Positions 781-63,182 of a stretch of 64,000 bases of DNA are shown here, piece after piece. The notes beneath the pieces are model-generated. The model saw nothing but the letters and a program-made list of their open reading frames with translations. It had not been told where the DNA came from and searched no databases. Position numbers and translations under genes: made by a program. How positions within the stretch are numbered: position 1 is the first letter of the stretch; the number at the start of each line of letters is the position of its first letter. Where the stretch lies: assembly GCA_038087875.1 (NCBI GenBank), contig CM075993.1, positions 10,790,001 through 10,854,000 of the forward strand, in the 5' to 3' direction. Source of the DNA: Malacoraja senta (lineage: Eukaryota).

Positions 781-2240
781 AGAGTCATACAGCGTAGACG
801 CAGGCTATTTGGCCCATCTTGCCCATGCCAACCAAGATGCCCCATCTACACTATAAAGCTATTTATCTAAAAACCACCTGCCCGCATTTGCCACATATCC
901 TTCTAAACCTTTCCTATCCATGTACCCGGCCAAACGTCTTTTAAATGTTGTGATAGTACCTCCTCTGGCCACTTGTTCCACATACTCAGGTTCCTGCTAA
1001 ATCTTCCTCCTCTCATCTTAAACCTATGCCCTCTAGTTCTTGATTCCCCCAACTCTGGGTAAAAGACTGTGCATCTACCTTATATTAACTTATACTCTTA
1101 TATGCCTCTATAAGATCACCGCTCATCCTCCTGCGCTCCAAGGAATAAAGTCCTAGCCTGCCCAACTTCTCCATATAGCTCAGGCCCTCAAGTCCTGGCA
1201 ACATGCTCGTAAATCTCTGCATGCTGTCTAGCTTAACAACATCTTTCCTATAGCAGGGTGACCAAAACTGAATGTTACTCTAAATGTGGCTGCACCAACA
1301 TCTTGTACAACTGCAACATAACATCTCGACTTCTATACTTAGTACCCTGACTGATGAAGGCCAATGTGCCAAAAGCTTTCTTGACCACCCGATCTACCTA
1401 TAATGCCACTTACAAGCCACCTCCAACAGGATCCCACTACTGGCCACTACTTCCCATTTCCACCCTTTTCTGCTCATTCGAGAGACCATTCTCTCCGAAA
1501 TTCCCTGGTCAACTCGTCCCTTCCCACCCAAACCACCCCCTCCCCCCTCGACTCCATTCAAGGACCCAAAAGAGTCTTTCCAGGTGAGGCAGAGGTTCAC
1601 TTGCACCTCCTCCAAACTCATCTACTGTATCCGCTGTTCCAGGTGTCAACTTCTCCACATCGGTGAGACCAAGCGCAGGCTCGCCGATCGTTTTGCTGAA
1701 CACCTCTGCTCAGTCCATCTTAACCTACCTGATCTCCCAGTGGCTCAGCACTTCAACCCCTCCTCCCATTCCCACACTGACCTTTCTGTCCTGGGCCTCC
1801 TCCATTGTCAGAGTGAGGCCCAGTGCCAATTGGAGGAGCAGCACATCATATTTCACTTGGGGAGCTTGCACCCCGGCGGTATGAACATTGACTTCTCTAA
1901 CTTCAGATAGCCCTTGCTTTCTCTTACCATCCCCTCCCCAGTTCTCCCACTAGTCTTACTGTCTCCCATTACATTCTATCTTTGTCCCGCCCCCTCCCCT
2001 AACATCAATCTGAAGAAGGGTCTCGACCCGAAACGTCGCCCATTCCTTCTCTCCAGAGATGCTGCCTCACCCGCTGAGTTACTCCAGCTGTTTGTGTCTG
2101 CCACTTTCGAGGAACTACGTATCTGCGCTCCTAGATCCCTTTGCTCTATAACACTCCCCAGAGCAATGCCATTCACTGTGAAGGTCCTGCCCTGGTTTGC
2201 TTCTCAAAATGCAACACCTATTAACCATTCCTCAGCCCAA
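781..2240 (-). mobile_element. CR1/HER1-type LINE 3' fragment, interrupted by a Penelope insertion
   Basis: Similar to other CR1 3' ends in the window (e.g. 32757-33489). The sequence resumes after 2098. Confidence 0.8.
1412..2098 (+). mobile_element. Penelope-like element 3' part: GIY-YIG endonuclease fragment plus pLTR with hammerhead core
   Basis: ORF 1584-1910 (IYCIRCSRCQLLHIGETKRRLADRFAEH...PVAQHFN) is a PLE GIY-YIG domain. It is followed by CTGAAGAAGGGTCTCGACCCGAAACGTC. It is flanked by an 8-bp duplication TGCCACTT (1404-1411 / 2099-2106). Confidence 0.88.
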
Positions 2241-2760
2241 TTGATCACGATCCAGCTGTAATTGTTGATAACAATATCATTTACTCACCCAAAACTTCCC
2301 CAACAGCTGAGGCAACTAGTCACTCCCACCCACAATGAAGGAAATAACCTTGAAGATGCCACGCTTTGAGTGAAGTCAAATTTGCATTTCATGTGAGGAT
2401 ATACAATAACATCAAGAGTGATCTTACGTACCAGCACCAAAATTCTTACAGTGGTTGCAACATACAGATAAATATAATAAATACAATAAATTAATAAGTT
2501 ATACTAGGTAACCATAATAACGCAATACCGAAGTGTGCAGTGCAACCAAAGACAGTCTATGTAAGATCATAGAATGGGCTGAAGGGCATGTTCTTGTACT
2601 GTTCTATGAGATGATGGTCAGAGTTGACCAGAGTTTAGTAGCATGATGTTTGCCAGGAAGAAGCAGTTCTTCTGTGATATTGTAATGCCACACCTGGCCT
2701 GTTTTTGATCTGTTCTTTGAGCTTCCCGCATGAATTAAGAACGTTCCAGTTTTCAATTTA

Positions 2761-3080
2761 GGGTGGCACAGTGGTGTAGCTGCTAGAGCTGCTGCCTTGC
2801 AGCACCAGAGACCCAGGTTAGATGCTGACCTTGGATGCTGTCTATGCAGTTTGCACGTTCTCCCTGTGACACCGTGGGATTCATCCGCGTGCTCCAGTTT
2901 CCTCCCACATCCCAAAGATGTGCAGGTTTGTAGGATAACTGGCCTCGTAAATTGCCCCTCGTGTGTAGGGAGTGGAGAAAGTGGGATGTCATAGTACTTG
3001 TATGAATTGGTATTCAATGGTCAGCATGCACTCCGTGGGATGAAGGGCACATTTCCATGCTGAATCTTCAAACTAAACTA
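2761..3080 (+). mobile_element. tRNA-derived V-SINE (HE1-like)
   Basis: tRNA-like head with A box (TGGTGTAGC) and B-box region, the central V-domain-like gtttcctcccacatcccaaagatgtgcaggtt, and a CR1-like tail ending in (AACTA)n. Confidence 0.8.
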
Positions 3081-3445
3081 ATTGGATTATGCAGAAGTTT
3101 GTAGTAAAATGCTAATATTACAAGCTTAACTCACCTGGAATTGTCGACTGCATGCAAGATATTAAATATGGATTGTAATTATCAAACTTGAAAGTAATTC
3201 TTAAAATTGTTCCTATCTGGAATATTTTAGTGGTTACTAAGTTCTTCAAATAGCAGATACAGAAGGATAGTTTAAAATACGAGAATGAAGCACATGTGGA
3301 GAATTTCAAATAAGCCGACAGATAATTGCTGCATTTAGAAATTTGCATATTTTGTGCTATATTCATTTCATAGGATTATTTGCTTGTCGAATCACACCAC
3401 TAAGCCTGAGGGGAAAAGAGAGTATGCATGATCGGGCAATCAGCA

Positions 3446-3762
3446 TGTGTCGGAAAGAAATGCAGATGCTGGTTTAAATTGAAGGGAGACACAAAATGCT
3501 GGAGTAATTCAGCAGGACAGGCAGCATCTCTGGAGAGAAGGAATGGGTGGAGTTTTGGGTCGAGACCCTTCTTCAGTCTGAAGAAGGGTCTCGACCCGAA
3601 ACGTCACCCATTTCTTCTCTCCAGAGATGCTGCCTGTCCCACTGAGTTGCTGCAGAATTCTGTGTCTACATTCGGGGGTCTCGACCCAAAACATCACCCA
3701 TTCCTTCTCTCCATAGATGCTGCCTGTCCCGCTGTGTTACTCCAGCATTTGTGTCTACCTTG
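3446..3762. repeat. Palindromic Penelope-pLTR-derived repeat (representative of many copies)
   Basis: The arm tgctggagtaa..cagcatctctggagagaaggaatgggt..tcgagacccttcttcag is followed by its reverse complement. Similar pairs occur at ~6480-6630, 22645-22860, 23675-23910, 25433-25615, 27685-27890, 34675-34850, 37690-38015, 43467-43680, 45762-45936, 51170-51388, 53075-53265 and 57668-57853. Confidence 0.85.
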
Positions 3763-4097
3763 AGGCAATCAGTATGCATACCATTGAGCATACCATACAG
3801 AACCCTCTTGTGGGAGATTTGAACCAGAACAAACTAATGATGACCTTCTCATTAAAGCTTGCCAACCACCTTCCATAAATAGTATCCATACCGATAACAT
3901 GTTGGAATTGCGATTACTGCCTGTGAAATCATACCATGATAAATCAAGGATGGAAACTGGGTGGAAGAGAAATTATAGATGCAGCAATGCTCATTATTAC
4001 TCTCAGAGCACCAATAATATAGAAAATTGGACACAGTCAAGGACATCTTTTAACTTCTGTTCACAAATATTAATTAAAAACAAGTTGGCAAAGTTGA

Positions 4098-4655
4098 AAT
4101 GTGTAGGAAGGAACTGCAGACGCAGGTTTAAACAGAAGATAAAGACAAAAAAAGTTGGAGTAACTCAGCGGGTAAGACAGCATCTCTGTGGAAATGGAAT
4201 AGGTGACGTTTTGGGTCGAGACCCTTCTTCAGACTGAGAGTCAGGGGAAAGGGAAACTAGAGATATAGACAGTGATGCCGAGAGATATAGAAAAAATGAA
4301 TGACATACATGTAAAAAAGTAACAATGATAAAGGAAACAGGCCATTGTTAGCTGTGGCCTTGGTAAAAACAAGTACAATGAGACTCAACAAGACGACTTT
4401 GAAGCTGTTACGACTTGGGTGGGGGAGAGAGGGAATGCAGGAGTTACTTGAAGTTAGCGAAATCAATATTCATACCACAGGGTTGTAAGCTGCCCAAGCG
4501 AAATACTACATGCTGTTCCTCCAATTTGCATTTGGCCTCATCCTGACTGACAATGGAGGAGGCCTAGGACAGACAGGTGAGTGTGGGAATGGGAAGAGGA
4601 ATTAAAGTGTTTAGCAACCGGGAGATCAGGTAGGCCCAGGCAGGCTGAGCGAAGT
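4098..4655 (-). mobile_element. Penelope-like element 3' fragment
   Basis: Reverse complement of the GIY-YIG C-terminus and pLTR seen at 1750-2100. Confidence 0.8.
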
Positions 4656-4929
4656 TGAAAGTTTTTGCCTTTTCGTTTTTCTTGGTCAGTTTCTCACCAA
4701 CATAATTTGCAAATGTCTGGTCACAATCTCAATCACACTTGTCACACTGTCTACTGACAACTGCCCAAAATAATTTTTTGGCTAATAAGCCTTCTGGTCA
4801 AAGTGGCTTTATATTTCACTCCTCTTCTCTCCTTATCCGACACCCATTTGTCTCCTCTCCATCTCTAGCCTTTGTCCACCCATTGTGAACCAAAACCCAC
4901 CTCACCTAAAAAACCCACCTCACCTATAT

Positions 4930-5770
4930 TAGCGTAGACTCGGTGACCACTTCGTTCAATACTTGCGCCAAGGCCTTCCTAATCTTCCGGTTGGTAATCA
5001 TTTCAACTCCCCTTCCCATTCCCACACTGACATTTCTGTCCTGTGGATGCCAGAGTGAGGCCACATGCAAACTGGAGAAACAGCAACTCATATTCCACTT
5101 GGGTAGCTTACAACCCAACATTGAATTCTCCCGTGACTAGTTGAATTCTCCCGTGACTAAGTGAATTCTCCCGTGACTAATTGAATTCCCTAATTTTAGG
5201 TAACATGTCACTCACTTCCCCCCCCCCCACCCCCAAACACTACCCCCTCTCCCCCACACTACACCACTATTCCCTCCCTGTGCCTCATCTGCACTACCAC
5301 TTATTTCTCCCCTCAGTCCCCACCCCCCTTCTACTTTCTGGCATCACAATCTACAACTGTTTAAACTGTCTCACACCTTCCTTTCTTATCTCAGCCTTTG
5401 TTCCACCGTCTGCCAATCAAACCCACACCCCCCCTTGCCCATGTCGCCCTATTACCTGCTACGCTTTGTCGTACATCTCCACTTTTCCAGCTTTCTTCTC
5501 CTCCACGACCCCCCCCCCCCCCAAATCGGTCTGAAGAAGGTTCTCGACCCAAAACGTCACCGATCCATGTTTGCCAGAGATGCTGCCTGACCTGCTGAGT
5601 TACTCTCGCACTTCATTTTGTTTTGTTTATCACTTACCAAGCTTTGCCCCATCTCTTTACTAGCTTTCGCTCCTCCTGTACTACAAGCAGCTTGAGGGGT
5701 CCCAAACTGAAACATCGCCTGTCCATGTCCTCCAGAGATGTTGCCTGACCTGCTGTTACTCCAGCACATT
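4930..5770 (+). mobile_element. Penelope-like element 3' fragment(s)
   Basis: ORF 4943-5140 ends ...EATCKLEKQQLIFHLGSLQPN. It contains a 20-bp triplication TGAATTCTCCCGTGACTA at 5121-5180 and a hammerhead-like motif at 5525-5564. Confidence 0.8.
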
Positions 5771-7227
5771 TTCTTTTGTAAAGTAGCATTTGTAATTTCT
5801 TGTATGTCTGGATAAAGTGACAAATGGAAGTTGTAGGCACTTCAGTGAATTTTGTTTAAAAAAAATACCTGCAAAATAGACGCTACCTTTTGATAAGTTC
5901 TAATCAAACTACAAGATAGCGAAGATTATAATAAGATAGACACAAAAAGCTGGAGTAACTCTGCAGACAGGCATTAGTTATTATAGTACTTAGTAATCTT
6001 TTTTTTCCAAAGATAGAAAATAAAATGAAACTAATTAGTTCATTCCGATCAAAACTACACATCTGGGATTCCTACAAGATTGTTTTTTATTTAAATTTCC
6101 CAACAGGATGTGAAATTCTCACAACAAAAAAAACTTCAAACCACAGGTGAAAACGTATCTCATAGTAAACCCCTAAATTTCCCCAAAACTGGAAGTTTCA
6201 GTTTCAATCTCAGTGTACCCACAACAACATAGTTCATGACGGCAGACCACGTTACGTATACCTGCCATTGGCTCTAATATTTCAAATGGCTTGTTGGACC
6301 CAAAATATCAGGAAGGCAACAATTTCCTGCAAGTGAACATCAAGACCAAAATTATAAAATCCATTCCTTAGCCACCACCTCCTAACCTCCCTCAGGCAAG
6401 GCAAGTGCCAGAACAACATGTAAAAGACATTTGGACAGGTACATAGGAAAGGTTTGGAGGGAATGTGTCAAAAGGAACAGCAGGTGCTGGTTAATACCGC
6501 AGATAGACACAAAGGGGTGGAGTAACTCGGCGGGTCATGCAACATCTCTGGAGAAAAAAGGATTGGTGACGTTTCGGGTTGAACCCTTCTTCAGGATCTG
6601 AAGAAGGGATCCGATCCCACGACACCCATCCAATCCACAAAGTTTTAGAGGGATATGGGTCAAATGTGAGCAGGAGGGACTAGTGTAAATGGGGCATCTT
6701 GGTCAACATGGGCAAGTTGGGCTGAAGGGCCCGTTACCATGCTGTATGACTGCGACTCTAAGTGTCCCATCTGATTGAAAAGTTAGAGGACAAAGCAACA
6801 TGCGCTGGTGATTGTAAGTGCAAATGACGGGAGAGATTCTTGTATTTTCTTCCTCTTTCCCTCTTCTGACATAGGGTCCAGGACCTGAAATATTAACTTT
6901 GTTTTTCCATAGATACTCCCTGACCTGCTGAATGTTTTGAGCACTTTTGATTTCATTTTAGTTACATTTACCATCCCCAAATCATAATCTTCACTTGCAA
7001 ACAGCCCAAACCTGCCCAATCTCAAAGTAACTACTGTCCAAACTCTTATCCCACGACTGACAATATTCTGACCTACACTAATCATTTATTTTTGATGAGC
7101 TACATTGAGCTACAATGCTCCTTTTAAAATATTCTATCTAGCAATAAAAAAAAAACACCCGCTGAAAAGCCAACATGACAACTGGAGATAAAATACTGAA
7201 GATACTCAGCAGATCAGGCAGCATCTG

Positions 7228-7781
7228 CTATTCTTGCTATTGAGGGAGATTCTTGCTGTTGAGGGAGATTCTTGCTATAGAGGGAGTGCAGCGTAGGTTT
7301 ACAAGGTTAATTCCCGGGATGGCGGGACTGTCATATGCTGAGAGAATGGAGCAGCTGGGCTTGTATGCTCTGGAGTTTAGAAGGATGAGAATGGATCTCA
7401 TTGAAACATATAAGATTGTTAAGGGTTTGGATACGCTAGAGGCAGGATACATGTTCCCGATGTTGGGGGAGTCCAGAACCAGGGGCCACAGTTTAAGAAT
7501 AAGGAGTAAGCCATTTAGAACGGAGAAGAGGAAACACTTTTTCTCACAGAGAGTGGTGAGTCTGTGGAATTCTCTGCCTCAGAGGGCGGTGGAGGCAGGT
7601 TCTCTGGATGCTTTCAAGAGAGAGCTAGATAGGGGTCTTAATAATAGCGGAGTCAGGGGATATGGGGAGAAGGCAGGAACGGGGTACTGATTGGGGATGA
7701 TCAGCCATGATCACATTGAATGGCGGTGCTGGCTCGAAGGGCCGAATGGCCTACTCCTGCACCTATTGTCTATTGTCTATT
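7228..7781 (+). mobile_element. CR1 LINE 3' fragment
   Basis: ORF 7253-7690 (EGVQRRFTRLIPGMAGLSYAER...RVVSLWNSLPQ) is the CR1 ORF2 C-terminus. It is followed by the 3'UTR hairpin and a (CTATTGT)n tail. Confidence 0.9.
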
Positions 7782-7852
7782 GCATCTGTGAAAGCTAAAC
7801 ATTTGAGATGAATGACGAGCTTCAGAACTCAGGTAGGTCAGAACTTTGGAAC

Positions 7853-8400
7853 AGCACGGTGACACAGAGATAGAGTTGCTGCCGTACAGCACCAGAGACC
7901 CAGGTTCGATCCTGACTAGGGGTGCTGTGCACGTTCTCCCCGTGACCTGCATGGGTTTTCTCCGGGTGCTCCGGTTTCCTCCCACACTCCAAAGACGTAC
8001 AGGTTTGTAGGCTAATTGGCTTAATATAACCGTAAATTGACCATGTTGTTGTTCGTACTTCGTAGTCGAAGAAGACCATGACTTCAGTGTTTTTGTTTGT
8101 GGGTCCGGAGGTGACTGGTGAGACCGATCCGGGCCTGGAAGGCTCGCCCGCATATGGGACACAGTTGGGTGGGTGCTGCAGTTGAATTTGAAGTGGCTCG
8201 AGCCTTGCGCGCGGCGCGTTTCCCTGAGCTTCTGCGGTGCGCTTCTTCTCAGCTGCATGCGCTCCTGTGGTGATCTTGCTTCGCCAAATTGACCATAGTG
8301 TGTGTAGGATGGTGTAAGTGTGCGGGGATTGCTGTTCGGTGTAAACTCGGTGGGCCGAAAGGCCTGTTTCTACGCTGTATCTCTAAACACTAAACTAAAC
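7853..8400 (+). mobile_element. V-SINE interrupted by an RTE fragment
   Basis: SINE head and body at 7853-8044 and tail at 8286-8400. Confidence 0.85.
8045..8285 (-). mobile_element. RTE-clade (BovB-like) LINE 3' end with 11-bp TSD
   Basis: The minus strand encodes ...KRAARKARATSNSTAAPTQLCPICGRAFQARIGLTSHLRTHKQKH* (C2H2 finger; one frameshift upstream). The tail is GTCTTCTTCGACTACGAAGTACGAACAACAAC. TSD AAATTGACCAT at 8034-8044 and 8286-8296. Confidence 0.85.
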
Positions 8401-11059
8401 ACATCTATGCAACCACCCCCCACACCTTTCCCCATTTCCTGAAGCATATCAGCAAACCCATCTCCGACACAAAGCTTGGTAATAGCATGACCTGTATCAC
8501 CAGCAGACATTGTTAAATTACTTTAGATTCCTTCATCCAAATTGCTGATGCAGACTGAATAACTGGGCGTCAGACCTCATGAGTCATAACCTGCCAACCT
8601 AGAAACAATGTGTAAGAAGGAACACAAAATGCTGGAGTAACTCAGAAGAAGGGTCTCGGCCCGAAAGGTCACCCATTCCTTCTCTCCAGAGATGCTGCCT
8701 GTCCCGCTGAGTTACTCCAGCTTTTTGTGTCTGACCTGGAAACAATGCCTAATGTCGGTAAAGCAATCCTCAATCGACACTTGTATACTGCGTGGACATA
8801 GCGATTCCACAATTTCGTAATAGATTTTGGGCTACATTTTCTCACGAATTCATTCCCAGAGAGGAGCGCCCATCAAGTTTTTCAACAGCACATAATACAA
8901 AATCTCTCTCTCAGCGAGTTGAAAATACTTTTTCATTTCCACGAATTCAAATCAGAATGTCTGCCAAATAACTCGAGCGCCAAGTCCTTTACTTGCTCAG
9001 CTGCAAACGAATCAGATTCCAAATATCACTTTTTGTAAATGATTTAATATGACAGCGAAGCTTAACTGAGCTGGAAAATTATGGAAACACATTTGGCCTG
9101 ATTTTGTTTAACTCAACGTCAGGAGCTGGCCTCCATCTCGACCACGCCCTGGGTCATTGACCTCCCTTGGTCATTCCCTGAGCTTGCCATCTGCTCTCCA
9201 AACCCCCAATTCACACCACACTCCTGAACCAAATGGAAGGAATGAACTGCAGCGCACCAAGGGATGTGGTCTGAAACAAAAGCTGTAGTTAAAGTAAGTC
9301 CACAGATGTGACTCAAAGACAGGTTTTAAAAGTATAATGCATTTTTGCACGGTTTGAATGAATATATCTAATGTCTTTTGAAAATGATCAGAGTAAATAA
9401 AAATATTATTTCCCTGCACTTTTCTGCAACTCAGCTGCAATTTATGGGAGTTAATTCTATTACTTAGAGTTACAGAGGTATGCAGTAGGGAAACAGGCCC
9501 TTCTGTCCAACTTGTCCATGTCAACCAGGTTGATTAACTGAGCTCGTCGTATTTTTCTGGGACTACTCCAAACCTTTCCGATTCATGTAGCTGTCTAAAT
9601 GGCTTTTTAACTGTTGGCATCTGCCTTTACCAATTTCTCCGGCATATTTTTCAATATATCGAAACTCTTCAAATCCCTTTTAAATCTATGATCACTAGCT
9701 TTAGACTTCCTTATCTTGTGGAAACAACTGCCGTGAGTTACCTTATCACACCCCTCATGATTTTATATACCTCTATAAGGTCACTCCCATGCTCCAAGGA
9801 AAAGAGTTCTCATCTACCCAGGCTGTCCTCATAACTCAAACCCTCCAACTGCAATAACAACATTTCAGGGGTTGTGGGGAGAAGGCAGGAGAGTGGGGCT
9901 GAGAGATCGGCCATGATTGAATGGCGGAGTGGACTTGATGGGCCAAATGGCCTAATTCCGCTCCTATCACTTATGAAAACACAATGTGCTGAAGTGCTCG
10001 GGGGCAGTATGGTGGTGCAGCGGTAGAGTTGCTACCTTACAGCGCCCAGAGACTCGGGTTCAATCCTGACTAGGGGTACTGTCTGTACGGAGTTAGTACT
10101 TTCTCTCTGTGACCGTGTGGGTTTTCTCCGGGTGTGAGAGTTGCAGACTCCAATACCACGTGCTCTGACTCTCCTGTCCTATGCAACATTTCACAGTTTA
10201 GAAATTTCACTTTTCAATCTTTGCCCTCACTTTTGAAATATTCACGCCCCCCAAAGTTTGCCTTCTGGCTTCAGGGCAAGTTTAATTGCTCCATCATGGA
10301 CAACCATGGCGTAGGAAGGAACTACACCATATAACCATGGCTTCAATTATGAAAGCCATTCACTTGAATTTGCTGCAGAAGCCATTCAGCTGATTGCTAA
10401 TTTTCAATACTCAAAATCAACACTATCGGCCAACCTTTTTGTCAACTGTCTAAATATCGCTACGTTTGGTTTGGTTTATAAAATGAAGCATTAAACACTG
10501 AAAATACTCAAAGTGAAACAACATCAATGGGGAGAAAAGCTGGTTATGTTCCATCTGACACCATCTTCCTCTCCAGAAATGCTCTTTGAGTTAGAGAATT
10601 TCCATATATTTGCATATATGTTTTTTGCAGTTACACACAAAATAAATAAATGACTTGTGCAAAGACCTGTAATATAGATTTTTACTTTTTGACTGGAAGA
10701 TTCAATTACTAAATCCAAATATATGATAAGATTGTACACATGACATAGATAGGCGAGTGTGCTACAGGAAGAAACGATGACAGTACTACCCAAAGATTCT
10801 ATGATCTTTGGCACTACCATCCCTACTACATGAAAGTGCACTCTGGCCCCATGCATTAGAATAAGTTAAATCCATTTCACTTGTGAAAGAGCTTACAAAT
10901 TTAAAACTTTTAAAATTTTACCAGGGTGGTTTACCCAGGAATTGACCCAAATTTAATTTCTATATACGGTCTTAGAAACAGTTCATATGGTTATTCAGGT
11001 TACTCTGAATTATATTATAAGAACTTTGAAAGGTAATAGATTTACCTTCCTGTTATGAG

Positions 11060-17433: not shown

Positions 17434-17444
17434 AAGTGAGAGGA

Positions 17445-24850: not shown

Positions 24851-24868
24851 TCACTCACTCACACTCAC

Positions 24869-24992: not shown

Positions 24993-25020
24993 GTCGGGCT
25001 GAGCGGGCGGCGGCGGCGGC

Positions 25021-28188: not shown

Positions 28189-28323
<135 letters not shown>

Positions 28324-49107: not shown

Positions 49108-50939
49108 ATAGAAACATAGAAATATAGAAAATAGGTGCAGGAGTAGGCCATTCGGCCCTTCGAGCCTGCACCGCCATTCAATATGATCATGGCTGATCAT
49201 CCAACTCAGTATCCCGTACCTGCCTTCTCTCCATACCCCCTGATCCCCTTAGCCACAAGGGCCACATCTAACTCCCTCTTAAATATAGCCAATGAACTGG
49301 CCTCAACTACCCTCTGTGGCAGAGAGTTCCAGAGATTCACCACTCTCTGTGTTAAAAAGTTTTTCCTCATCTCGGTCTTAAAGGATTTCCCCCTTATCCT
49401 TAAGCTGTGACCCCTTGTCCTGGACTTCCCCAACATCGGGAACAATCTTCCTGCATCTAGCCTGTCCAACCCCATAAGAATTTTGTACGTTTCTATAAGA
49501 TCCCCTCTCAATCTCCTAAATTTTAGCGAGTATAAGCCAAGTCTATCCAGTCTTTCTTCATATGAAAGTCCTGACATCCCAGGAATCAGTCTGGTGAACC
49601 TTCTCTGCACTCCCTCTATGGCTATAATGTCCTTCCTCAGATTTGGAGACCAAAACTGTACACAATACTCCAGGTGTGGTCTCACCAAGACCCTGTACAA
49701 CTGCAGTAGAACCTCCCTGCTCCTATACTCAAATCCTCTTGCTATGAAGGCCAACATACCATTCGCTTTCTTCTCTGCCTGCTGCACCTGCATGCCTACT
49801 TTCAATGACTGGTGTACCATGACACCCAGGTCTCGCGGCATCTCCCCATTTCCTAATCGGCCACCATTTAGATAATAGTCTGCCTTCCCGTTTTTGCCAC
49901 CAAAGTGGATAACCTCACATTTATCCACATTATACTGCATCTGCCAAACATTTGCCCACTCACCCAGCCTATCCAAGTCACCTTGCAGTCTCCTAGCATC
50001 CTCCTCACAGCTAACACTGCCCCCCAGCTTAGTGTCATCCGCAAACTTGGAGATGTTGCTTTCAATTCCCTTGTCGAGATCATTAATATAAATTGTAAAT
50101 AGCTGGGGTCCCAGCACTGAGCCTTGCGGTACCCCACTAGTCACTGCCTGCCATTGTGAAAAGGACCCGTTTACTCCTACTCTTTGCTTCCTGTTTGCCA
50201 GCCAGTTCTCTATCCACATCAATACTGAACCCCCAATACCGTGTGATTTAAGTTTGTAGCCTAATCTCTTATGTGGTACCTTGTCGAAAGCCTTCTGAAA
50301 GTCCAGATACAACACATCCACTGGTTCTCCCCTATCCACTCTACTAGTTACATCCTCGAAAAATTCTATAAGATTCGTCAGACACGATTTACCTTTCGTA
50401 AATCCATGCTGACTTTGTCCAATGATTTCACCACTTTCCAAATGTGCTGCTATCCCATCTTTAATAACTGACTCTAGCAGTTTCCCCACTACCGATGTTA
50501 GACTAACTGGTCTGTAATTCCCCGTTTTCTCTCTCCCTCCCTTCTTAAAAAGTGGGGTTACGTTTGCTACCCTCCAATCCTCAGGAACTACTCCAGAATC
50601 TAAAGAATTTTGAAAAATTATCACTAATGCATCCACTATTTCTGGAGCTACTTCCTTAAGTACTCTGGGATGCAGCCTATCTGGCCCTGGTGATTTATCG
50701 GCCTTTAATCCATTCAATTTACCCAACACCACTTCCCGACTAACCTGGATTTCACTCAGTTCCTCCATCTCCTTTGAGCCCCCTGCTATTTCCGGCAGAT
50801 TATTTATGTCTTCCTTAGTGAAGACGGAACCAAAGTAGTTATTCAATTGGTCCGCCATATCCTTGTTCCCCATGATCAATTCACCCGTTTCTGACTGCAA
50901 GGGACCTACATTTGTTTTAACTAATCTCTTTCTCTTCAT
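49108..50939 (-). mobile_element. Young 5'-truncated CR1 LINE
   Basis: Uninterrupted RT frame and an octamer-repeat tail (CTATGTTT-like). Near-identical 3' copies at 61520-61948 and 36116-36333. Confidence 0.93.
49206..50939 (-). CDS. CR1 ORF2 reverse transcriptase (C-terminal 577 aa, no endonuclease)
   Basis: KSPGPD, NYRPVSLTS, QHGF..GKSCLTNL, YLDFQKAFDKVPH, SGVPQGSVLGP and KFADDTK motifs with no stops. Confidence 0.9.
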   Translation of the reverse strand: MKRKRLVKTNVGPLQSETGELIMGNKDMADQLNNYFGSVFTKEDINNLPEIAGGSKEMEELSEIQVSREVVLGKLNGLKADKSPGPDRLHPRVLKEVAPEIVDALVIIFQNSLDSGVVPEDWRVANVTPLFKKGGREKTGNYRPVSLTSVVGKLLESVIKDGIAAHLESGEIIGQSQHGFTKGKSCLTNLIEFFEDVTSRVDRGEPVDVLYLDFQKAFDKVPHKRLGYKLKSHGIGGSVLMWIENWLANRKQRVGVNGSFSQWQAVTSGVPQGSVLGPQLFTIYINDLDKGIESNISKFADDTKLGGSVSCEEDARRLQGDLDRLGEWANVWQMQYNVDKCEVIHFGGKNGKADYYLNGGRLGNGEMPRDLGVMVHQSLKVGMQVQQAEKKANGMLAFIARGFEYRSREVLLQLYRVLVRPHLEYCVQFWSPNLRKDIIAIEGVQRRFTRLIPGMSGLSYEERLDRLGLYSLKFRRLRGDLIETYKILMGLDRLDAGRLFPMLGKSRTRGHSLRIRGKSFKTEMRKNFLTQRVVNLWNSLPQRVVEASSLAIFKRELDVALVAKGIRGYGEKAGTGY

Positions 50940-51432
50940 ACCTCATATCCAACCTCATATCTACCTCATTGGGGACCCTCGGACTATCTTTGATCGGACT
51001 TTGCTGGCTTTACCTTGCACTAAACGTTATTCCGTTATTATGTATCCGTACACTGTGAATGGCTCGATTAGAATCATGTACTGTCTTTCTGCTGACGTGT
51101 TAGCAGCAACAACAGCTTTTCACTGTTCATCGGTACACGTGACAATAAACTAAACAGAAACTAAACTGGTACTGGAAATATCGAAGGTAGACAAAAATGC
51201 TGGAGAAACTCAGCGGGTGAGGCAGCATCTATGGAGCGAAGGAATAGGTGACGTTTCGGCTCGAGACCAAGGGTCTCGACCCGAATCGTCACCTATTCCT
51301 TCGCTCCATAGATACTGCCTCCCCCGCTGTGTTTCTCCAGTATTTTTGTCTACCTTTGATTTTTCCAGCATCTGCAGTTCCTTCTTAAAGACTGCAACTG
51401 GAAATTGATTGCTGGGTCTTTGTTACCACTGG

Positions 51433-51841: not shown

Positions 51842-52264
51842 GAACAGAGGTCACCGTCTCCGAGAGGAGGCCAACGGTACCGGAATGTTCCGCCAAGGCC
51901 ACAGAGGGGCCGAGATACCGGCAAGCAAATTCGGCCTCGCAAGTCGGCATACCTGAAGAAGGGTTTCGGCCCGAAACGTTGCCTATTTCCTTCGCTCCAT
52001 AGATGCTGCTGCACCCGCTGAGTTTCTCCAGCACTTTTGTCTACCCTCGCAAGTCGACTATGGGAACGGATCTGCCGGCTCCGCCCGGGCCAGAGTTCCA
52101 GAGCCCCGGCCGCAGGGGGGAAATTCAACCCGCCGATCGGCGCAGAAGCCCCAATGAGGAAGAGGTTGGCTCACCTCACCTGGCCTGGGCACCACATTTT
52201 TGGGGGGACTTCCGAGGGGGTTTTAAGTGCGCTCTCGTAATTCATCGTCCGGATTCATCATCTG
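51842..52264. mobile_element. Unclassified GC-rich insertion with 9-bp TSD inside an old CR1 remnant
   Basis: TTGCCAGAA at 51833-51841 and 52265-52273. The flanks join into a degenerate CR1 FADD..IGG region. It hosts a Penelope pLTR piece (51947-52044) flanked by a CCTCGCAAGTCG duplication. Confidence 0.55.
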
Positions 52265-52848: not shown

Positions 52849-55424
52849 GTGGAAACGTCTCCCTGTAATGCCCTTTAAGATCTTGTATCATTCAATGAGA
52901 CCGCCTTCAATCTGCTAAACTCCAAAGTAAACAGGTTCAACTTCTTTCTCTGATCCCAGAATTAGCCGAGTGAATCTCCTTTGGTTAGCCTCCAGTGTTA
53001 TGGACTGTTGGCCTGTCCTACAGCCTTGCTATTAACATGTTGCACAGACAAGGAAGAATATGCCCTGGGAACGAGGAATTGCAGGTGTTGGTTTACAGAC
53101 AAACCCCCACGAAGTGCAGAGTAACTCAGTGGGTCAGGCAGCATCTCTGGTTACATGGATAGGTGACATTTTGGGTCATGTCTGAAGAAGGGTCCTGACC
53201 CGAAACCTATCATGTTCTCCAGAGATGCTGCCCGACCCGCTGAGTTACTCCAGCACGTTGTGTCATTAAAAAATATATTGCCCTTGTAAATTTTGCTTTT
53301 AGCTGCTCCATTAACCAACTTGGACTCATCTGAACAGAGGTGTTCCCTTCCCCAACTTCGCAACTAATTGAAAAATAATTGTTCTCTCTTTCCCAGTTCT
53401 GACATGGGTCTGTACCTGAAATATCAACTCTTTTTCTCTCCACATATGCTGCCTGACCCGCCATGCATTTTTTGTTTATTTCAGAATTCCAGCATCTGCA
53501 TTTTTTCCTGATTCCAAGGTCAATAGACAATAGACAATAGGTGCAGGAGTAGGCCATTTGGCCCTTCGATCCAGCACCACCATTCAATGTGATCATGGCT
53601 GATCATCCCCAATCAGTACCCCATTCCTGCCTTCTCCCCATATCCCCAGTCCAGTGATGATCGGAGCTGGCAAACCTGTTCCTTCTCTGGAATGTGTAAG
53701 GAACTGCAGATGCTGGTTTACACTGAAGATAGACACACAATGCTGGAGTAACTCAGCGGGTCAGGCAGCATCTCTGGGGAAAAGAAATAGGTGATGTTTT
53801 GGGTTCGAGACCCTTCTTCAGACTGACTTGGGAAGGGGGACCATTCCTTCTCGAGAATGTCAACAATTAGCAACTGAAAGCTTCCTGTGGAGTTATTATT
53901 AAGACATTCTGCCTATCAGGCAATTGAATCATCCTACAACTACCAGAGAGCAACGCTGAACTACTATCTACCGTGTTGGCGACCCTCGGACTATCCTTTG
54001 CTGGCTTTACCTTGCACTAATCATGTATCTATACACTGTAAATGGCAATCATGTATTGTCGTCCTGATGACGGGATTGCACGCAGCAAAAGCTTTTCACT
54101 GTACCTCGATACACGTGACAGTAAACTAAACTGAACTGAACAGTAGATGAGGTTGGAGGAGGTGCAAGTCTCTAGAATACCAGCCACTGAGTGACTGAAA
54201 GTTTCCTGCGGAGTTACTATTAAAACATTCTGCCTAAATACGTGACGATTCTCATTCCAGTCTTGCTGCTTTCAAGAATCAAGAGAGTCCAGAGTGTTTT
54301 ATTGTCATATGTCCAAGATAGAACAATGACATTCTTACTTGCTGCAGCACAACACAATATGTAAACATAGTACACTGTGAACAATATAATAAATGAGAGG
54401 GAAAAAAGTTCAATGTATGTTTCTATACACTTACTCACAAATACACATATGCAGTATATAGATCATATATATATATATATTTACACACGTACACACAAAA
54501 TACAAACTATAATCGTGCAGCATTAATAACAATAATAGTCTATTGTAGTTCAGAGTTTACTTGAGGTTGTCCGGTTTAATAGCCTGATGGCTGTAGGGAA
54601 GAAGCTGTTCCTGGACGTTACAGTTTTCAGGCTCCTGTACCTCCAACCCCCCAGTCTGGAGAAATCCCTGGACTGCTGGAGTCAAGTTGTGCTGATCCGA
54701 CACGAGTATTTAAATCCGTTTATGCCAGGCTTATGTTGGTTCCTTAATAGTTGAACATCCATAACCGGCCATAGCACCCTGACCTTGACAAACTAACTAA
54801 GCAGGAGCAGGCAATGATGTGTAGAAGGTTAGTGGCCAGCAGACAAATGATGATAAAATATCTCTGGGTGCTAAAACAATAGCTGTATGTCTTGTGTGAC
54901 ATATTGCATCACTTCCAGGCTTTGAATCACAGGCCATTTATTTTGAATCTGCATTCAACTATGTTTTATTGTCATAATAAAGCAACTGCCACAGAGAGGG
55001 GGATTTTTATCGTGTCCAATCTTCAAATTGTTACATTATCTTCACAGCTCAGAAATCAGGGGATTCAAATTCATCCTGATAATAAGTGTCATTAAAATAA
55101 TGAAATCAATCTGAAAGGACTGACAGCGGAATCTGGTCGTGAAAATGTACAGCTTGTGTTGATCCTGTCTATCGCAGCTGAGAATGTGTAGCGGGGGGGG
55201 GGGGGGGGGGGGGCTGGGTCCGTCTCAGCCTGTCCGTAGCACCAGTACCTCAGGGGCCGTCGCTGTCAGACAGGAAAACAAAATGCAGATGCTGGTTTAT
55301 ACCGAAGATAGACCCAAAGTGCTGGAGAAACTCAGTGGGACAGGCAGCATCTCCGGAGAGAAGGAATGGGTGACGTTTCGGGTCGAGACCCTTCTTCAGA
55401 CTCATCTACATGATATTCATGACA

Positions 55425-56055: not shown

Positions 56056-56940
56056 TGTGTAGGAAGGAACTGCAGATGCTGGTTTAAACTGAAGATAGAC
56101 ACATCAAGCTGGAGTAACTCAGTGGGACAGGCAGCATCTCTGGAGAGAAGGAATAGGTGACGTTTTGGGTCGAGACCCTTCTTCAGACTGAGAGTCAGGG
56201 GAAAGGGAAACGAGAGATATAGACGGTGATGTAGAGAGATATAGAACAAATGAATGAAATAAATGCCAAAAAGTAACGATGATAAAGGAAACTGGCCATT
56301 GTTAGCTGTGGGCTAGGTGAAAATGAGTTACAGTTAATGAAACCTAATAAAGACAACTGAAGGTAGTATGACTTGGATGGGGGTTGAAAATGAGTTACAG
56401 TTAATGACACCTAATAAAGACGACTGAAGCTAGTATGGATGGGGGAGTGATGGAGATAGGGGGCTGCAAGGGTTACTTGAAGTTCGAGAAATCAATATAC
56501 ATTGTTTTGGATATTTGCAGAAAGGACTGTAGATGTTGGTTTAAACTGAAGATAGACACTTAAAGCTGGAGTAACTCAGCGGGCCAGGCAGCATCTCTGA
56601 AGAAGGGTTTTAACCTGAAATGTCAGCCATTCCTTCTCTCCAGAAATGCTGCCTTACTCGCTGTTACTCCTGCTTTTTGTGTCTATTTAAGGTTAATGCT
56701 TTATCCAATTCCCTTTCTCAGAACGAGGAGAGAGAAAAGGATGTTTAAGAAGGAACTGCAGATGCTGGAAAAACGAAGGTAGACAAAAATGCTGAAGAAA
56801 CTCAGCGGATGAGGCAGCATCTATGGAGCGAAGGAAATAGGCAACGTTTCGGGTCTCGACCCGATATGTTGCCTATTTTCTTCGCTCCATAGATGCTGCC
56901 TCACCCGCTGAGTTGCTCCAGCATTTTTGTTTACCTTAGA
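56056..56940. mobile_element. Cluster of Penelope pLTR fragments and palindromic pLTR pairs
   Basis: The same motif family as above. It includes a ~66-bp internal duplication at 56318-56440. Confidence 0.78.
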
Positions 56941-57179
56941 GAGAAAAGGAGTTGTTTTTTACTCGCAGAGAAACAAGAGTTCCCCTGGTCCTCACCTTCC
57001 ATCCACCAGGCTTTGCATTCAACACAAGGAACTGCAGATGGAAGAATCTTGTGTATAGACATTGTGCTGGCTTACACTCAGCAGGTCAGGTAGCATCTCT
57101 CGAGGACACTGTTAGGTGACGTTTTGGATCTGAAAAAGGCTTCCAAGCATTTCTCCAGAAGACAACCTGTTATTCCGAA

Positions 57180-57650: not shown

Positions 57651-58339
57651 CCAGCTTATTAAGGAAAGGTGTAGGAAGGAACTGCAGATGCCGGTTTAAA
57701 CCGAAGGTAGACACAAAATGCTGGAGTAACTCAGCGGGACAGGCAGCATCTCTGGGGAGAAGAAATGGGTGACGTTTCGGGTCAAGACCCTTCTTCATGA
57801 CTCTGAAGAAGGGTCTCGACCTGAAACGTCACCCATTCCTTCTCTCCCAGAGATCTTTTTGTTATGGAAAGGGCTAAGGCTGGTCTGGAAAGTAAGGTCC
57901 TCAATTAGAGGCAAGACCAATTTTAATATAAGGCATGATCTGGAAAAGGTAGACTGGGTACAGCTACTTGCAGGTAAAGGTTGCAATAGTTGCTGCCTCA
58001 ACTGCCTCCTCCGGCAGCGCCTCAACTGCCTCCTCCGGCAGCTCGTTCCATACACCCACCACCCTCTATGTAAAAAAAAGCTACCCCTCAGATCCTATTA
58101 AATCTTTTCCTCCCTCACCATTACCTATCTCTTCTGGTTCTCCATTCCTCTACTATTGGCAAAAGACACCCGATCTATTCCTCTCACGATCTTGTACACT
58201 TCTATAAGATCACCCCTCATCCTCCTGCGCTCTGAGGAATAGAGTCCCAGCCTGCTCAACCTCTCCTTGTAGCTCAGGCCCTCGAGTCCAGGCAACATTC
58301 TCGTAAATCTACTCTGCAACCCTATCCATCTTGACAACA

Positions 58340-59172: not shown

Positions 59173-59248
59173 TTGAATCAACCCTTAACAGCCACTGAGC
59201 AACTTAATCTTGTTTTTTCAGTCATTGGGGCTCAACCGTATCTATATA

Positions 59249-60851
59249 CAGTGGCTTGCAAAAGTATTCATACCCCTTGAACTTTTCCACATTTTGTCAC
59301 GTTACAACCACAAACGTAAATGTATTTTATTGGGATTTTATGATAGACAAAACACAAAGTGGTGCATAATTGTGAAGTGGAATGAAGTGGAATGAAAATG
59401 ATACATAAAAAACTGAAAAGTGTCGCGTGCAAAAGTATTCAGCCCCCCTGAGTCAATACTTTGTAGAACCACCTTTCGCTGCAATTACAGCTGCAACTCT
59501 TTTGGGGTATGTCTCTACCAGCTTTGCACATCTAGAGACTGAAATTTTTGCCCATTCTTCTTTGCAAAATAGCTCAAGCTCAGTCAGATTGGATGGAGAG
59601 CGTCTGTGAACAGCAATTTTCAAGTCTTGCCAGAGATTCTCAATTGGATTTAGGTCTGGACTTTGACTGGGCCATTCTAACACATGAATATGCTTTGACC
59701 TAAACCATTCCATTGTAGCTCTGGCTCTATATTTAGGGTCGTTGTCCTGCTGGAAGGTGAACCTCCGCCCCAGTCTCAAGTCTTTTGCAGACTCTAACAG
59801 GTTTTCTTCCAAGATTGCCCTGTATTTGGCTCCATCCATCTTCCCATCAACTCTGACCAGCTTCCCTGTCCCTGCTGAAGAAAAGCATCCCCACAACATG
59901 ATGCTGCCACCACCATGTTTCACAGTGGGGATGGTGTGTTCAGGGTGATGTGCAGTGTTAGGTTTCTGCCACACATTGCGTTTTGCATTTAGGCCAAAAA
60001 CTTCAATTTTGGTCTCATCTGACCAGAGCACCTTCCTCCACATGTTTGCTGTGTCCCTCACATGGCTTGTGGCAAACTGCAAACGGGACTTCTTATGGCT
60101 TTTTTTCAACAATGGCTTTCTTCTTGCCACTCTTCCATAAAGGCCCGATTTGTGGAGTGCACGACTAATAGTTGTTCTGTGGACAGATTCTCCCACCTGA
60201 GCTGTGGATCTCTGCAGCTCCTCCAGAGTTACTATGGGCCTCTTGGCTGCTTCTCTGATCAATGCTCTCCTTGCCCAGCCTGTCAGTTTAGGTGGACGGC
60301 CATGTCTTGGTAGGTTCGCAGTTGTGCCATACTCTTTCCATTTTCGGATGATGGATTGAACAGTGCTCTGTGAGATGTTCAAAGCCTGGGATATTTTTTT
60401 ATAACCTAACCCTGCTTTAAACTTCTCCACAACTTTATCCCTGACCTGTCTGGTGTGTTCCTTGGGCTTCATGAAGCTGTTTGTTCACTAATGTTCTCTA
60501 ACAAACCTCTGAGGCCTTCACAGAACAGCTGCATTTATACTGAGATTAGATTACACACAAGTGGACTCTATTTACTAATTAGGTGACTTCTGAAGGCAAT
60601 TGGTTGCACTGGATTTTATTTAGGGGTATCAGAGTAAAGGGGGCTGAATACTTTTGCACGCCACACTTTTCCGTTTTTTATTTGTAAAAAAATTTGAAAA
60701 CCATGTATCATTTTCATTCCACTTCACAATTATGCACCACTTTGTGTTGGTCTATCACATAAAATCCCAATAAAATACATTTACGTTTGTGGTTGTAACG
60801 TGACAAAATGTGGAAAAGTTCAAGGGGTATGAATACTTTTGCAAGCCACTG
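59249..60851 (-). mobile_element. Tc1-like (Passport/Eagle-like, IR/DR) transposon with intact transposase
   Basis: TA TSD (59247-48, 60852-53). ~200-bp TIRs CAGTGGCTTGCAAAAGTATTCATACCCC with inner repeat TGCAAAAGTATTCAGCCCCC. Length 1603 bp. Confidence 0.95.
59453..60472 (-). CDS. Tc1 transposase, 339 aa, DD34E
   Basis: Paired-like HTH, GRPPK, WSDETK, QQDND + 34 aa + E in SPDLNPIENLW, C-terminal KGGSTKY. No stops. Confidence 0.95.
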   Translation of the reverse strand: MKPKEHTRQVRDKVVEKFKAGLGYKKISQALNISQSTVQSIIRKWKEYGTTANLPRHGRPPKLTGWARRALIREAAKRPIVTLEELQRSTAQVGESVHRTTISRALHKSGLYGRVARRKPLLKKSHKKSRLQFATSHVRDTANMWRKVLWSDETKIEVFGLNAKRNVWQKPNTAHHPEHTIPTVKHGGGSIMLWGCFSSAGTGKLVRVDGKMDGAKYRAILEENLLESAKDLRLGRRFTFQQDNDPKYRARATMEWFRSKHIHVLEWPSQSPDLNPIENLWQDLKIAVHRRSPSNLTELELFCKEEWAKISVSRCAKLVETYPKRVAAVIAAKGGSTKY

Positions 60852-61197: not shown

Positions 61198-61500
61198 GTT
61201 TTAGAGATACAGCGCGGAAACAGGCCCTTCAGCCCACAGCGATCCCCGCACACTAACACTATCCTACACACACTAGGGACAATTTACATACCCAAGTATA
61301 CAAACCCGGGCCAATTAACCTACAAACCTGTACGTCTTTGGAGCGTGGGAGGAAACCAAAGATCACGGAGAAAACCCACACGGGTCACGGGGAGAACGTA
61401 CAAACCCCGTACAGACGGCACCCGTAGTCGGGATCGAACCCGCGTCTCTGGCGCTGCAAATGCTGTAAGGCAGCAACTCTACCGCTGCTCCACCGTGCTG
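61198..61500 (-). mobile_element. V-SINE (HE1-like)
   Basis: Reverse-complement full copy. Confidence 0.85.
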
Positions 61501-61519
61501 CCCTGGTTTATATTTTAGA

Positions 61520-61948
61520 TACATAGATACATAGAAAATAGGTGCAGGAGTAGGCCATTCGGCCCTTCGAGCCTGCACCGCCATTCAATATGATCATGGC
61601 TGATCATCCATCTCAGTATCCCGTACCTGCCTTCTCTCCATACCCCCTGATCCCCTTAGCCACAAGGGCCACATCTAACTCCCTCTTAAATATAGCCAAT
61701 GAACTGGCCTCAACTACCCTCTGTGGCAGAGAGTTCCAGAGATTCACCACTCTCTGTGTGAAAAAGTTTTTCCTCATCTCGGTCTTAAAGGATTTCCCCC
61801 TTATCCTTAAGCTGTGACCCCTTGTCCTGGACTTCCCCAACATCGGGAACAATCTTCCTGCATCTAGCCTGTCCAACCCCATAAGAATTTTGTACGTTTC
61901 TATAAGATCCCCTCTCAATCTCCTAAATTCTAGCGAGTATAAGCCAAT
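61520..61948 (-). mobile_element. Young CR1 3' fragment
   Basis: Almost identical by eye to 49108-49540. Confidence 0.9.
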
Positions 61949-62289
61949 TTAATTTTATGATTAAACAATGGCAGGTGTTTACATTATTTGGGTGAGGGAC
62001 CAGTCAACCCATTAGCAACCTCCTAGTAGCCCCTTAGCAACGCCTTAGTCAATCAACCCTTAGCAGCCCTTTAGCAACTTAATCATGTTTTTCAGTCATT
62101 GTGGCTCAAGCGTATCTACAGTATATTTTGGCTATTGCAGGCCTCGTGACTTAGCAATGCACAATTCTCCACTTGGCATTTAGCCGACAATGTTAATGTT
62201 CAGTAAGCATGTTGTAGTGTCCACATAGACAAGTATCCCAACATCCTTTCTGGTTCCGAAATGTACTCCAACAACTTGCGGACGTTATG

Positions 62290-62455
62290 ATGAAGGGCTT
62301 CAAGGGCTTGGTTGTGATGCGCAACCTTCTGTAGGAATCTGGACCTCCTCCAACTCGCCTACCGCCACAACAGATCAACAGCGGATGTGATCTCGCTGGC
62401 TCTCCATCTCTGCTGGAGGACTTGGACAACAAGAACACATACGCCAAGCTGTTTA
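62290..62455 (+). pseudogene. Degenerate Rex1/Babar RT fragment
   Basis: LDLLQLAYRHNRSTADVISLALH...LDNKNTYAKLF-like remnant. Confidence 0.65.
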
Positions 62456-63182
62456 AGAAAGAACTGCAGATGCTGGAAAAATCGAAGGTAGACAAAAATG
62501 CTAGAGAAACTGGAGAAACTCAGAAACCCTCCCTACCCCTACATCAGTACAGCCCACTGTCTCCGCCTTTTCTTCCCGCCCCCCTCTCCCATCCCCACAT
62601 CAGTCTGAAGAAGGGTCTCGACCTGAAACGTCACCTATTCCTTCGCTCCATAGATGCTGCCTCACCTGCTGAGTTTCTCCAGCATTTTTGTCTACCTATG
62701 GCAAGCTGTTGTTCATAGACACAAAAGGCTGGAGTAACTCAGCGGGACAGGCAGCATCTCTGGAGAGGAATGGGTTGAGACCCTTTGGGTTGAGACCCTG
62801 CTTTAGACTGAGAGTCAGGGGAGACATAGGGAGGGTAACGGTAAAGTGTGAAAACGAGAGATCAGAGGGGACGATGCTCAAGGAAAATGTAGAATAGATC
62901 ATCGTTGGCTGAGGGGAAGGTGACAACGAGGCATACAATCAGTAAGATTCATCAGGAGGGCAGTGAAACTAGTCGGAGAACTAGGATGGGGGAGGAATGG
63001 AGAGAGAGGGAAAGCAATGGTTACTTGAAGTTAGAGATGTCAATATTCATACAAAATGTGTAGGAAGGAACTGCAGATGCTGGTTAAAACCAAAAATAGA
63101 CACAAAATGCCGGAGTAACTCAGCGGGACAGGCAGCATCTCTGGAGAGAAGGAATGGGTGACGTATTGGGTCGAGACTCTTC
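62450..63182. mobile_element. Cluster of Penelope pLTR fragments
   Basis: The same motif family, both subfamilies, in both orientations. Confidence 0.75.

Follow-up and report, generated by a model that had tools for sequence, protein, structure and literature searches.

The 64,000-nucleotide stretch of Malacoraja senta DNA analysed here (positions 10,790,001 to 10,854,000 of contig CM075993.1, assembly GCA_038087875.1; hereafter the window) carries the first coding exon of a Rab8 gene, open frames of transposons and a short repeat that holds the core of a hammerhead ribozyme and lies downstream of coding remnants of Penelope-like elements (PLEs). The gene is called RAB8B below, presumably correctly, the label resting on two differing residues. 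A preliminary description of the window had named the repeat as the most frequent one, with 35 to 45 copies by eye. A search with a profile hidden Markov model (HMM), for which 18 window copies served as seed set, gave 71 matches at E<1, of which the 68 at E<1e-3 were retained. These copies or fragments are found on both strands, cover 6,787 bases and amount to about one copy per kilobase, all copy counts given here referring to the 64-kb window, while the reversed window used as control gave 0 matches. The repeat is real, and 39 of the 68 copies span the core.

Analysis of the copy at the left side of the window revealed four successive parts on the plus strand. The open frame at 1404-1910 is the 3' remnant of a PLE open reading frame (ORF) and encodes a GIY-YIG C-terminus with the CCHH residues, in which the zinc finger of the linker is deleted; its match to Pfam PF01541 (E=0.0016) is below the curated cut-off. 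The frame ends 100 nt upstream of the core and is followed at 1911-2009 by a pyrimidine-rich 3' untranslated region (UTR) or pseudo-long terminal repeat (LTR) spacer, whose length of about 100-400 nt differs by subfamily. The minimal hammerhead core at 2010-2037 consists of C3-A9, a bulged A, a 4-bp stem II, G12-A14, the ACGT palindrome of stem III and GUC; the cut is predicted between 2037 and 2038, and stem I has 1 bp. The body of the repeat runs from 2038 to its short 3' end at 2102 and holds a pyrimidine tract for which pairing with the core strand is predicted. The statement that the motif lies directly 3' of GIY-YIG coding sequence (1584-1910) was borne out, six of the 68 copies reaching such remnants and adjoining them in the same orientation. 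Longer copies were identified at 4101-4687 (-), with a GIY-YIG C-terminus at 4447-4687, UTR, a G12-mutated core and tail; at 21891-22271 (+), with a GIY-YIG C-terminus and a broken core; and at 26131-26573 (-), with a GIY-YIG C-terminus, UTR, a core with broken stem III and tail. A further longer copy at 4933-5614 (+) belongs to a minor subfamily and has its core at 5531-5558, with G12 mutated and a mismatch in stem II; the 6-bp stem I (5525-5564) and mutated GAAA reported for it earlier are present as described.

The best homologs of the 1404-1910 frame are proteins of Mobula, Leucoraja and Hypanus with 65-76% identity (7 matches among 67 candidates, all longer proteins). These batoid homologs and relatives of 800-900 residues carry a reverse transcriptase (RT), a Cys linker and, at the C-terminus, a GIY-YIG domain with the CCHH residues, which is the layout described for Neptune and Nematis (PMC8557442). 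The zinc-finger-like Cys linker deleted in the 1404 copy is kept in homologs P0001-P0003 and in the window fragment 48758-48886, a plus-strand PLE fragment that stands beside a short minus arm of the repeat (48732-48886). The PLE-type RT was found in the homologs, and within the window as a single 30-residue fragment at 30326 (E=0.001). By homology the parent is a Neptune-type PLE, a term that here covers both Neptune and Nematis. No PLE relative was found in the viral collection, and exact-pattern scans of viral and metagenome contigs gave no further copies of the repeat.

All 11 invariant core bases and H17 are kept in 20 of the 39 core-spanning copies, and 13 of these retain, besides the core, four pairs of stem II and the palindrome of stem III. 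A strict core pattern gave 15 matches in the window and 0 in 100 shuffles. The covariance-model hammerhead search proposed in the preliminary description returned 36 matches at E<0.01, one of them from a different repeat, the model being partly self-derived in that six of its 17 sequences are window copies. At the gathering score no Rfam hammerhead family was detected in the window, nor any at E<=10 in 1900-7000, where the microRNA matches of the Rfam search are the inverted pair. The bulged nucleotide after A9, G10.1-C11.1 and helix II are present; the palindromic positions 15.2-16.2 are CG in the window and CG, TA, GC or TG in relatives, and form no stable helix III. Five rough subfamily majorities all keep the core CUGAnGA / GAAA / UH. 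Four stem II examples had been given at 2018, 6606, 51961 and 53190; their positions are right, but those at 6606 and 53190 belong to broken copies, the first because GAAA-CGTC is lost and the second because a deletion removed the cleavage triplet. A coding role of the frame running through the repeat was rejected, since it contains a stop in the A2 subfamily, and neither of the other two frames is open in the profile consensus. Near-hammerheads (CUGAUGA, a 3-bp stem and AAAA for GAAA) were seen at 1351-1376 and 33370-33395 (+), antisense to a LINE-like (long interspersed nuclear element) coding remnant; G12 is absent in both, and they are likely due to chance because the letters are dictated by codons on the opposite strand.

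Related loci were taken as the best 80 of 494 confirmed loci from metagenome contigs, of which 43 include the GIY-YIG end together with 300 nt or more of downstream sequence. In 24 of these 43 the motif recurs 70-360 nt after GIY-YIG. An alignment of six window and 11 related sequences, hand-chosen to cover the variety, showed pairing in 90.8% of cells against 61.2% after shuffling (0/500), with 48 double changes, while slid controls were 26-44% paired. The covariation is seen in stems I, II and III alike. Since all three stems covary, the motif is a real hammerhead by descent and, as judged by sequence, the known minimal hammerhead ribozyme of PLEs (min-HHR of PMC4209133). In a related locus (L005:126), a minimal hammerhead whose stem I has 6 bp is located immediately upstream of a PLE ORF of near full length, in the position of a 5' flanking repeat.

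The arrangement of the copies was then compared with the marks of PLE insertion, namely 5' truncation, an inverted neighbour, an optional tail and a variable target duplication (PMC8557442). Neighbours not more than 60 nt apart form 15 head-to-head pairs, 3 convergent pairs and 2 tandems. The 3' ends fall into two groups, 30 copies ending at profile positions 87-107 and 36 at 117-133, with two copies apart, and the flanks diverge past the optional tail of about 40 nt. Of 51 units, 12 lie between target duplications of 12-18 matched letters, compared with 0.5% of 400 mismatched pairs; because such duplications flank 8 of the 15 multi-arm units, a head-to-head pair is read as a single insertion. 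Both arms are of one subfamily in 11 of the 12 pairs in which both were assigned. By eye, about 6 of the 15 head-to-head junctions have a palindrome overlap of 2-5 nt and the rest have none or insertions, on which no claim is made. The 5' starts lie at position 5 or before in 39 copies, at 6-22 in 20, at 23-43 in none and at 44 or beyond in 9. The scissile bond (cut after profile position 31) is spanned by 59 of the 68 copies, and about 47 of these 59 end within some 25 nt at the motif start.

Pairs with an intact core are located at 22633-22858 (core 22704-22731, minus strand; 18-bp target-site duplication; folding as a single hairpin of about 95 bp), 43430-43678 (core 43500-43527, minus) and 57669-57854 (core 57803-57830, plus), and two neighbouring pairs occupy 56519-56941 (core 56597-56624, plus; the second pair joined inside stem II). 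The pair at 6465-6630 has an intact core at 6568-6594 (-) in the sense of RAB8B with 0 bp of stem I; its core strand is predicted to pair with the other arm, which is weak (E=0.37) and outside the 68. A pair of the GUU subfamily at 25432-25618 is joined inside stem II and has a target-site duplication. Three-arm insertions with target-site duplications were found at 3447-3764, with a tailed minus arm, two plus arms and an intact core at 3578-3605 (+), and at 37684-38018, with a tandem (37813/37889) in which one core, 37891-37918, is complete. Solo copies with intact cores are those at 18503-18608 (-; core 18579-18606, in RAB8B sense, stem I 2 bp, a compensatory change in stem II), 51953-52049 (+; GUU subfamily, core 51953-51980, stem I 1 bp, target-site duplication) and 55281-55402 (-; core 55372-55399). 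A tailed copy at 25732-25864 (+) has an intact core (25735-25762) and a 2-bp stem I, an older copy at 28007-28125 (+) has a 4-bp stem I and an intact core with damaged stems II and III, and three independent copies lie at 62602-63184, with an intact core at 62605-62632 (+) and a minus-strand copy at 62714-63052 that extends to the GIY-YIG stop region. At 23673-23908 both arms are tailed and have the same 10-nt flank, so that, unlike the other pairs, they are likely a later inverted duplication. The copies at 37684-37777 and 38079-38211 (-) have 30 nt of upstream sequence in common, which may mark a preferred target site or a local duplication and which we take to resemble a LINE 3' UTR.

Taken with the homology of the GIY-YIG end, the motif, this insertion geometry and the decay pattern given below, which are observed, the repeat is probably the 5'-truncated 3' end of Neptune-type PLEs, whose copies were likely pasted from uncut RNA and are likely inert; the steps of the mechanism we infer. 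The PLE protein would nick the target DNA and begin reverse transcription internally, at either of two sites located some 60-65 and some 100 nt 3' of the cleavage site, which would give the short end and the tail end. Reverse transcription would read through the intact scissile bond and in most cases halt in the 5' half of the motif, over a stretch of about 25 nt; where both target strands were primed, as would often happen, a head-to-head pair within a single target duplication would result. In Poseidon PAc the tail is explained by two internal RT start sites, with both target strands primed, and uncut RNA is the template (PMC11167929); the templates of the skate copies may likewise have been uncut, or re-ligated. 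Once inserted, the motif would decay neutrally. What the preliminary description had proposed on a minimal type I hammerhead core, PLE origin and massive amplification is supported by these results.

Stem I is short in the intact copies. It has 0-2 contiguous bp in 13 of 13 intact copies and at least 3 bp in 21 of 25 relatives, about 14 of which are one family, so that p-values of skate against relatives are inflated by relatedness. Longer stems, of 6 bp at 5525 and 4 bp at 28007, occur in copies that are otherwise damaged. The median predicted stem II probability is 0.00 in intact copies and 0.93 in relatives, the low value in the former being due to predicted pairing between the core strand and the downstream pyrimidine tract. 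Compared with the best fold, the hammerhead fold is less stable by 7-15 kcal/mol in four main-subfamily copies, by 9.4 at 28007 and by 0.8 at 5525, all folds being predictions for single strands of related sequences. A competing helix is thus predicted to mask the core, which is in addition often mutated. Because stem I has 1-2 bp and the core strand is predicted to be paired with the pyrimidine tract, cleavage in the dominant subfamilies would depend on a second RNA as partner and probably also on the PLE protein. The mutations are consistent with neutral decay. G12, which is in a CpG, is mutated in 15 of 58 copies and other CpG sites in 85 of 409; after base-composition matching, 14 core changes were observed and 18.3 expected (p=0.18).

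Several observations weigh against this reading. The core strand is often predicted to be paired in relatives too (median unpaired 0.30 vs 0.24, p=0.10), and therefore the folds do not predict activity. Before matching for base composition, non-CpG changes were fewer in the core than in the flank (15/444 vs 171/2535, p=0.005), and shared variant positions number 0 of 10 in the core and 18 of 73 elsewhere (p=0.11). In all five subfamily majorities the core is unchanged, while 18 other positions vary between copies, which suggests that active elements had a use for the ribozyme. Exactly one arm is tailed in 11 of the 15 pairs, a weak asymmetry (p=0.06). The window holds no full-length parent element, and for this reason the hammerhead of the master element is not seen. 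On the comparison named beforehand as a possible refutation of the ribozyme, that of mutation in the core and in its flanks, the outcome is divided: the core is not measurably protected among individual copies but is kept in the five subfamily majorities, and we read this as selection in master elements and neutral decay in copies.

One raw polyA run and three contig sets were aligned to 1400-2110 at 80% likeness; the source organism of the polyA run, whose DNA run contains 0.38 of the sampled words of a repeat-rich stretch, may differ from that of the window, and sequencing runs with small shares of such words were left aside. From the polyA run 22,211 of 7,335,232 records aligned. The depth over the repeat is nearly equal by mate direction (7,803 and 8,212) and exceeds that over GIY-YIG by a factor of 15-20, in keeping with embedded copies being transcribed passively. 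Nowhere in 1400-2110 was a pile-up of molecule ends seen, ends under a fifth of the depth not being reported, and no forward skip is among the 15 best-supported joints of 835; both negatives are weak because the reads come from many pooled loci and perhaps from another organism than the window. Aligned contigs number 198,262 in X22 and 219,955 in X18, counts that do not give copy numbers but suggest that the family is very large. In the one copy compared, the share of A>G and T>C changes was no larger in the RNA run than in X22. Inversion joints to 2050, perhaps from a subfamily whose alignment stops there, were not used.

The sharp 5' ends of the copies fit both stalling at structure and run-off at a capped end, and the latter was considered as a refinement. 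Here the transcript would start at TCAGT before the core, which we take to resemble the Initiator consensus, and RT from the internal sites would run off the cap, so that short cDNAs of 95-135 nt integrate in bulk and the repeats are complete copies of the RNA 5' end; the shortness of stem I would follow from an RNA that extends only some 3 nt upstream of the core. Of the 39 starts at position 5 or before, 11-13 share upstream sequence or reach GIY-YIG and the others begin at about -3 to +5, while 20 copies start at 6-22, which counts against run-off. The largest listed pile of 5' loose ends in X24, X22 and X1 lies before 2009 (2,222 reads in X24, 2,610 contigs in X22; upstream letters unrelated, agreement 0.32-0.36), but a mismatch of the reference copy at 2008 by itself breaks alignments at 2009. 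The majority sequence of the loose ends finishes in GAG in X22 and X18, as would be expected from an untemplated G derived from the cap, but in CAG in X24 and X1; five window copies have a leading G (14418, 15788, 34715, 51953, 55402), while three solos begin with target microhomology and no extra G. Joints that lead from the short 3' end back to 2009 recur (in 26 contigs of X22 and 22 of X18), which fits re-initiation after run-off. TCAGT is absent before the motif in relatives, the read data list no molecule-end pile-up, and the start site is a candidate. Initiation is internal in PAc and its products shorten with a 5'-truncated template (PMC11167929), and a start site near the motif is plausible because the start site of D. 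virilis Penelope, as well as an intron, was placed inside the flanking repeat (PMC2377424). On balance run-off is a tentative possibility. The fuller model of a batoid Neptune with a self-masked hammerhead at the capped RNA 5' end, remodelled by protein, with an uncut template and run-off cDNAs often two per site, is doubtful. Were it true, the repeats would preserve in the genome, likely in 10^5 or more copies, where PLE transcripts start, where they are primed and how second strands are resolved. Literature searches by title gave nothing relevant on strong-stop, truncated or inverted Penelope-like copies and none on non-autonomous palindromic PLE derivatives.

Two other explanations were weighed. 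The preliminary description had inferred a retrozyme-like non-autonomous family, in which hammerhead-excised units circularise and are reverse-transcribed as a lineage of their own. The ratio of short to GIY-YIG-bearing copies is near 10:1 in the window and some 15-20:1 when judged from read depth, head-to-tail joints with a unit of about 91 nt are found repeatedly in contigs from related organisms, and Li et al. 2026 report non-LTR retrozymes, which they argue to be derived from PLE flanking repeats, in their one sampled chondrichthyan (10.64898/2026.07.22.740005). An active retrozyme is defined there by two or more consecutive units with complete motifs, but the window has two tandems with one complete core each; 8 of the 9 dimers reported as tested in that study were uncleaved, and retrozymes are kept separate from minimal PLE motifs in PMC7229834. 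None of the 68 copies begins at the cut (P=0.03 if 5% did), subfamily sequence is common to short and long copies, and the 0-2 bp of stem I in all 13 intact copies differ from the canonical type I fold with a helix I of about 6 bp. With no tandem of complete motifs, no start at the cut and a 5'-truncated PLE geometry, the retrozyme inference did not hold and we regard it as very improbable; arrays of complete motifs may exist elsewhere, because the test spans 64 kb and the joints recur in related contigs. A splicing switch, in which an intron with its end at the AG preceding the core would bring in a new strand for stem I and thereby activate the ribozyme, is similarly improbable. In its favour, GTAA is present at the stop codon of long copies, their spacer is variable and rich in pyrimidines, and CAG immediately precedes the core; an intron of D. 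virilis Penelope is also described as ending at helix I (PMC4209133). Against it, no candidate donor improves stem I by inspection, the AG occurs in 0 of 24 relatives, forward skips are missing from the 15 best-supported joints of 835, and the short copies have no common preceding exon.

The 5'-truncated PLE end preferred here agrees in most traits with described systems. The motifs of PLE pseudo-LTRs reported by Cervera & De la Pena 2014 (PMC4209133) have the same core, bulge after A9, G10.1-C11.1 and palindromic 15.2-16.2, and are likewise dispersed singles from truncated PLEs, sometimes in close opposite-strand pairs; in that report no monomer cleavage and low dimer cleavage are given. Stem I has 1-2 bp in the dominant skate subfamilies against 4-5 bp in Schistosoma and 2 bp in D. 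virilis (PMC4209133), helix I spanning 2-6 bp in described PLE minimal hammerheads and 0-2 bp in intact skate copies, and the competing helix with the downstream tract is predicted in the skate copies, unlike the motifs presented there. The density is about 300 intact cores per Mb (20 in 64 kb), compared with 4,000-9,000 per genome in coelacanth and Xenopus under different criteria (PMC4209133). Neptune and Nematis, which are endonuclease-positive PLEs (Craig et al. 2021, PMC8557442), are described with the same GIY-YIG CCHH, Cys linker and 5' truncation, adjacent inverted truncated copy, 30-40-nt tail and variable target duplication, but the skate family differs in its extreme bias to copies of about 100-135 nt with 5' ends piled at the hammerhead. 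Poseidon PAc of Anolis (Frangieh et al. 2024, PMC11167929) has two RT starts downstream of the hammerhead that define the tail and an uncut-RNA template, both as proposed here, and likewise no reported RNA-seq ends at the cut site; it belongs to another PLE clade, its ORF starts at stem II, a start whose equivalent was not found here, and its ribozyme activity was shown with protein. Animal non-LTR retrozymes (PMC7229834; 10.64898/2026.07.22.740005) are likewise short, non-coding, hammerhead-bearing, PLE-related and of high copy number, but are described as tandem arrays with complete, usually canonical hammerheads and circular RNAs, in contrast to the solo or head-to-head minimal skate copies with marks of PLE insertion. 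By title, no account of this element in skates or rays was found, though supplementary lists may hold chondrichthyan motifs. The PLE minimal hammerhead is of a kind described since 2014, and the distinctive traits here are density, eroded stem I and the 5' end hotspot. The role of PLE hammerheads and the resolution of PLE insertions are general questions on which so large a sample bears, and tens of thousands of sharp-ended short insertions would make both testable by computation.

The host exon, Rab8 coding exon 1, is located at 24992-24869 (-) with 39 of 41 residues identical to RAB8A, and 1-24868 was read as intron. A short motif search of the window found neither RPS27L nor later Rab8 exons. 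The intron contains 25 copies, 13 antisense and 12 sense, with three intact cores in each orientation, and the copy density is 1.01/kb in the intron vs 1.11/kb upstream. It had been suggested that sense-strand cleavage by intronic copies could affect the RAB8B pre-mRNA, and three of the 12 sense copies (6594, 18608, 22733) do have an intact core with stems II and III. However, strand depletion is lacking and the intron density equals that upstream, in a small sample; the three have 0, 2 and 0 bp of stem I and a predicted stem II probability of 0.20 or less, two of them sit in head-to-head pairs, the copy at 22733 is predicted to be locked in a hairpin of -140 kcal/mol, and the intron holds no intact same-strand pair within 1 kb. 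With no strand bias, a G12 that decays like any CpG site and no such partner, cleavage of this pre-mRNA by intronic copies is unlikely, and we give hardly any credence to an effect on host expression.

The pairs at 3447-3675, 22633-22858 and 23673-23908 and 12 others form long hairpins of about 90 bp, several of them inside the Rab8 intron (z=-14 for 22625-22865). At about one per 4 kb, head-to-head pairs would place many hairpins of this length into pre-mRNAs, and these could be ADAR or Dicer substrates or promote back-splicing.

Other features of the window include GC-rich tandem units of about 33 nt at 24993-25100, in the Rab8 5' UTR region, each with TGATGTCA or a similar motif, and a 200-base N gap at 17234-17433. 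A Tc1-type transposase frame of 343 residues with helix-turn-helix and DDE domains is open at 59453-60484 (-), and related fragments lie at 46747-47797. Long open LINE frames were found at 39305-41128 (-), with apurinic endonuclease and RT (607 aa), and at 49206-50942 (-), with RT (578 aa), and an (AT)n tract of 130 nt extends from 28192 to 28321.

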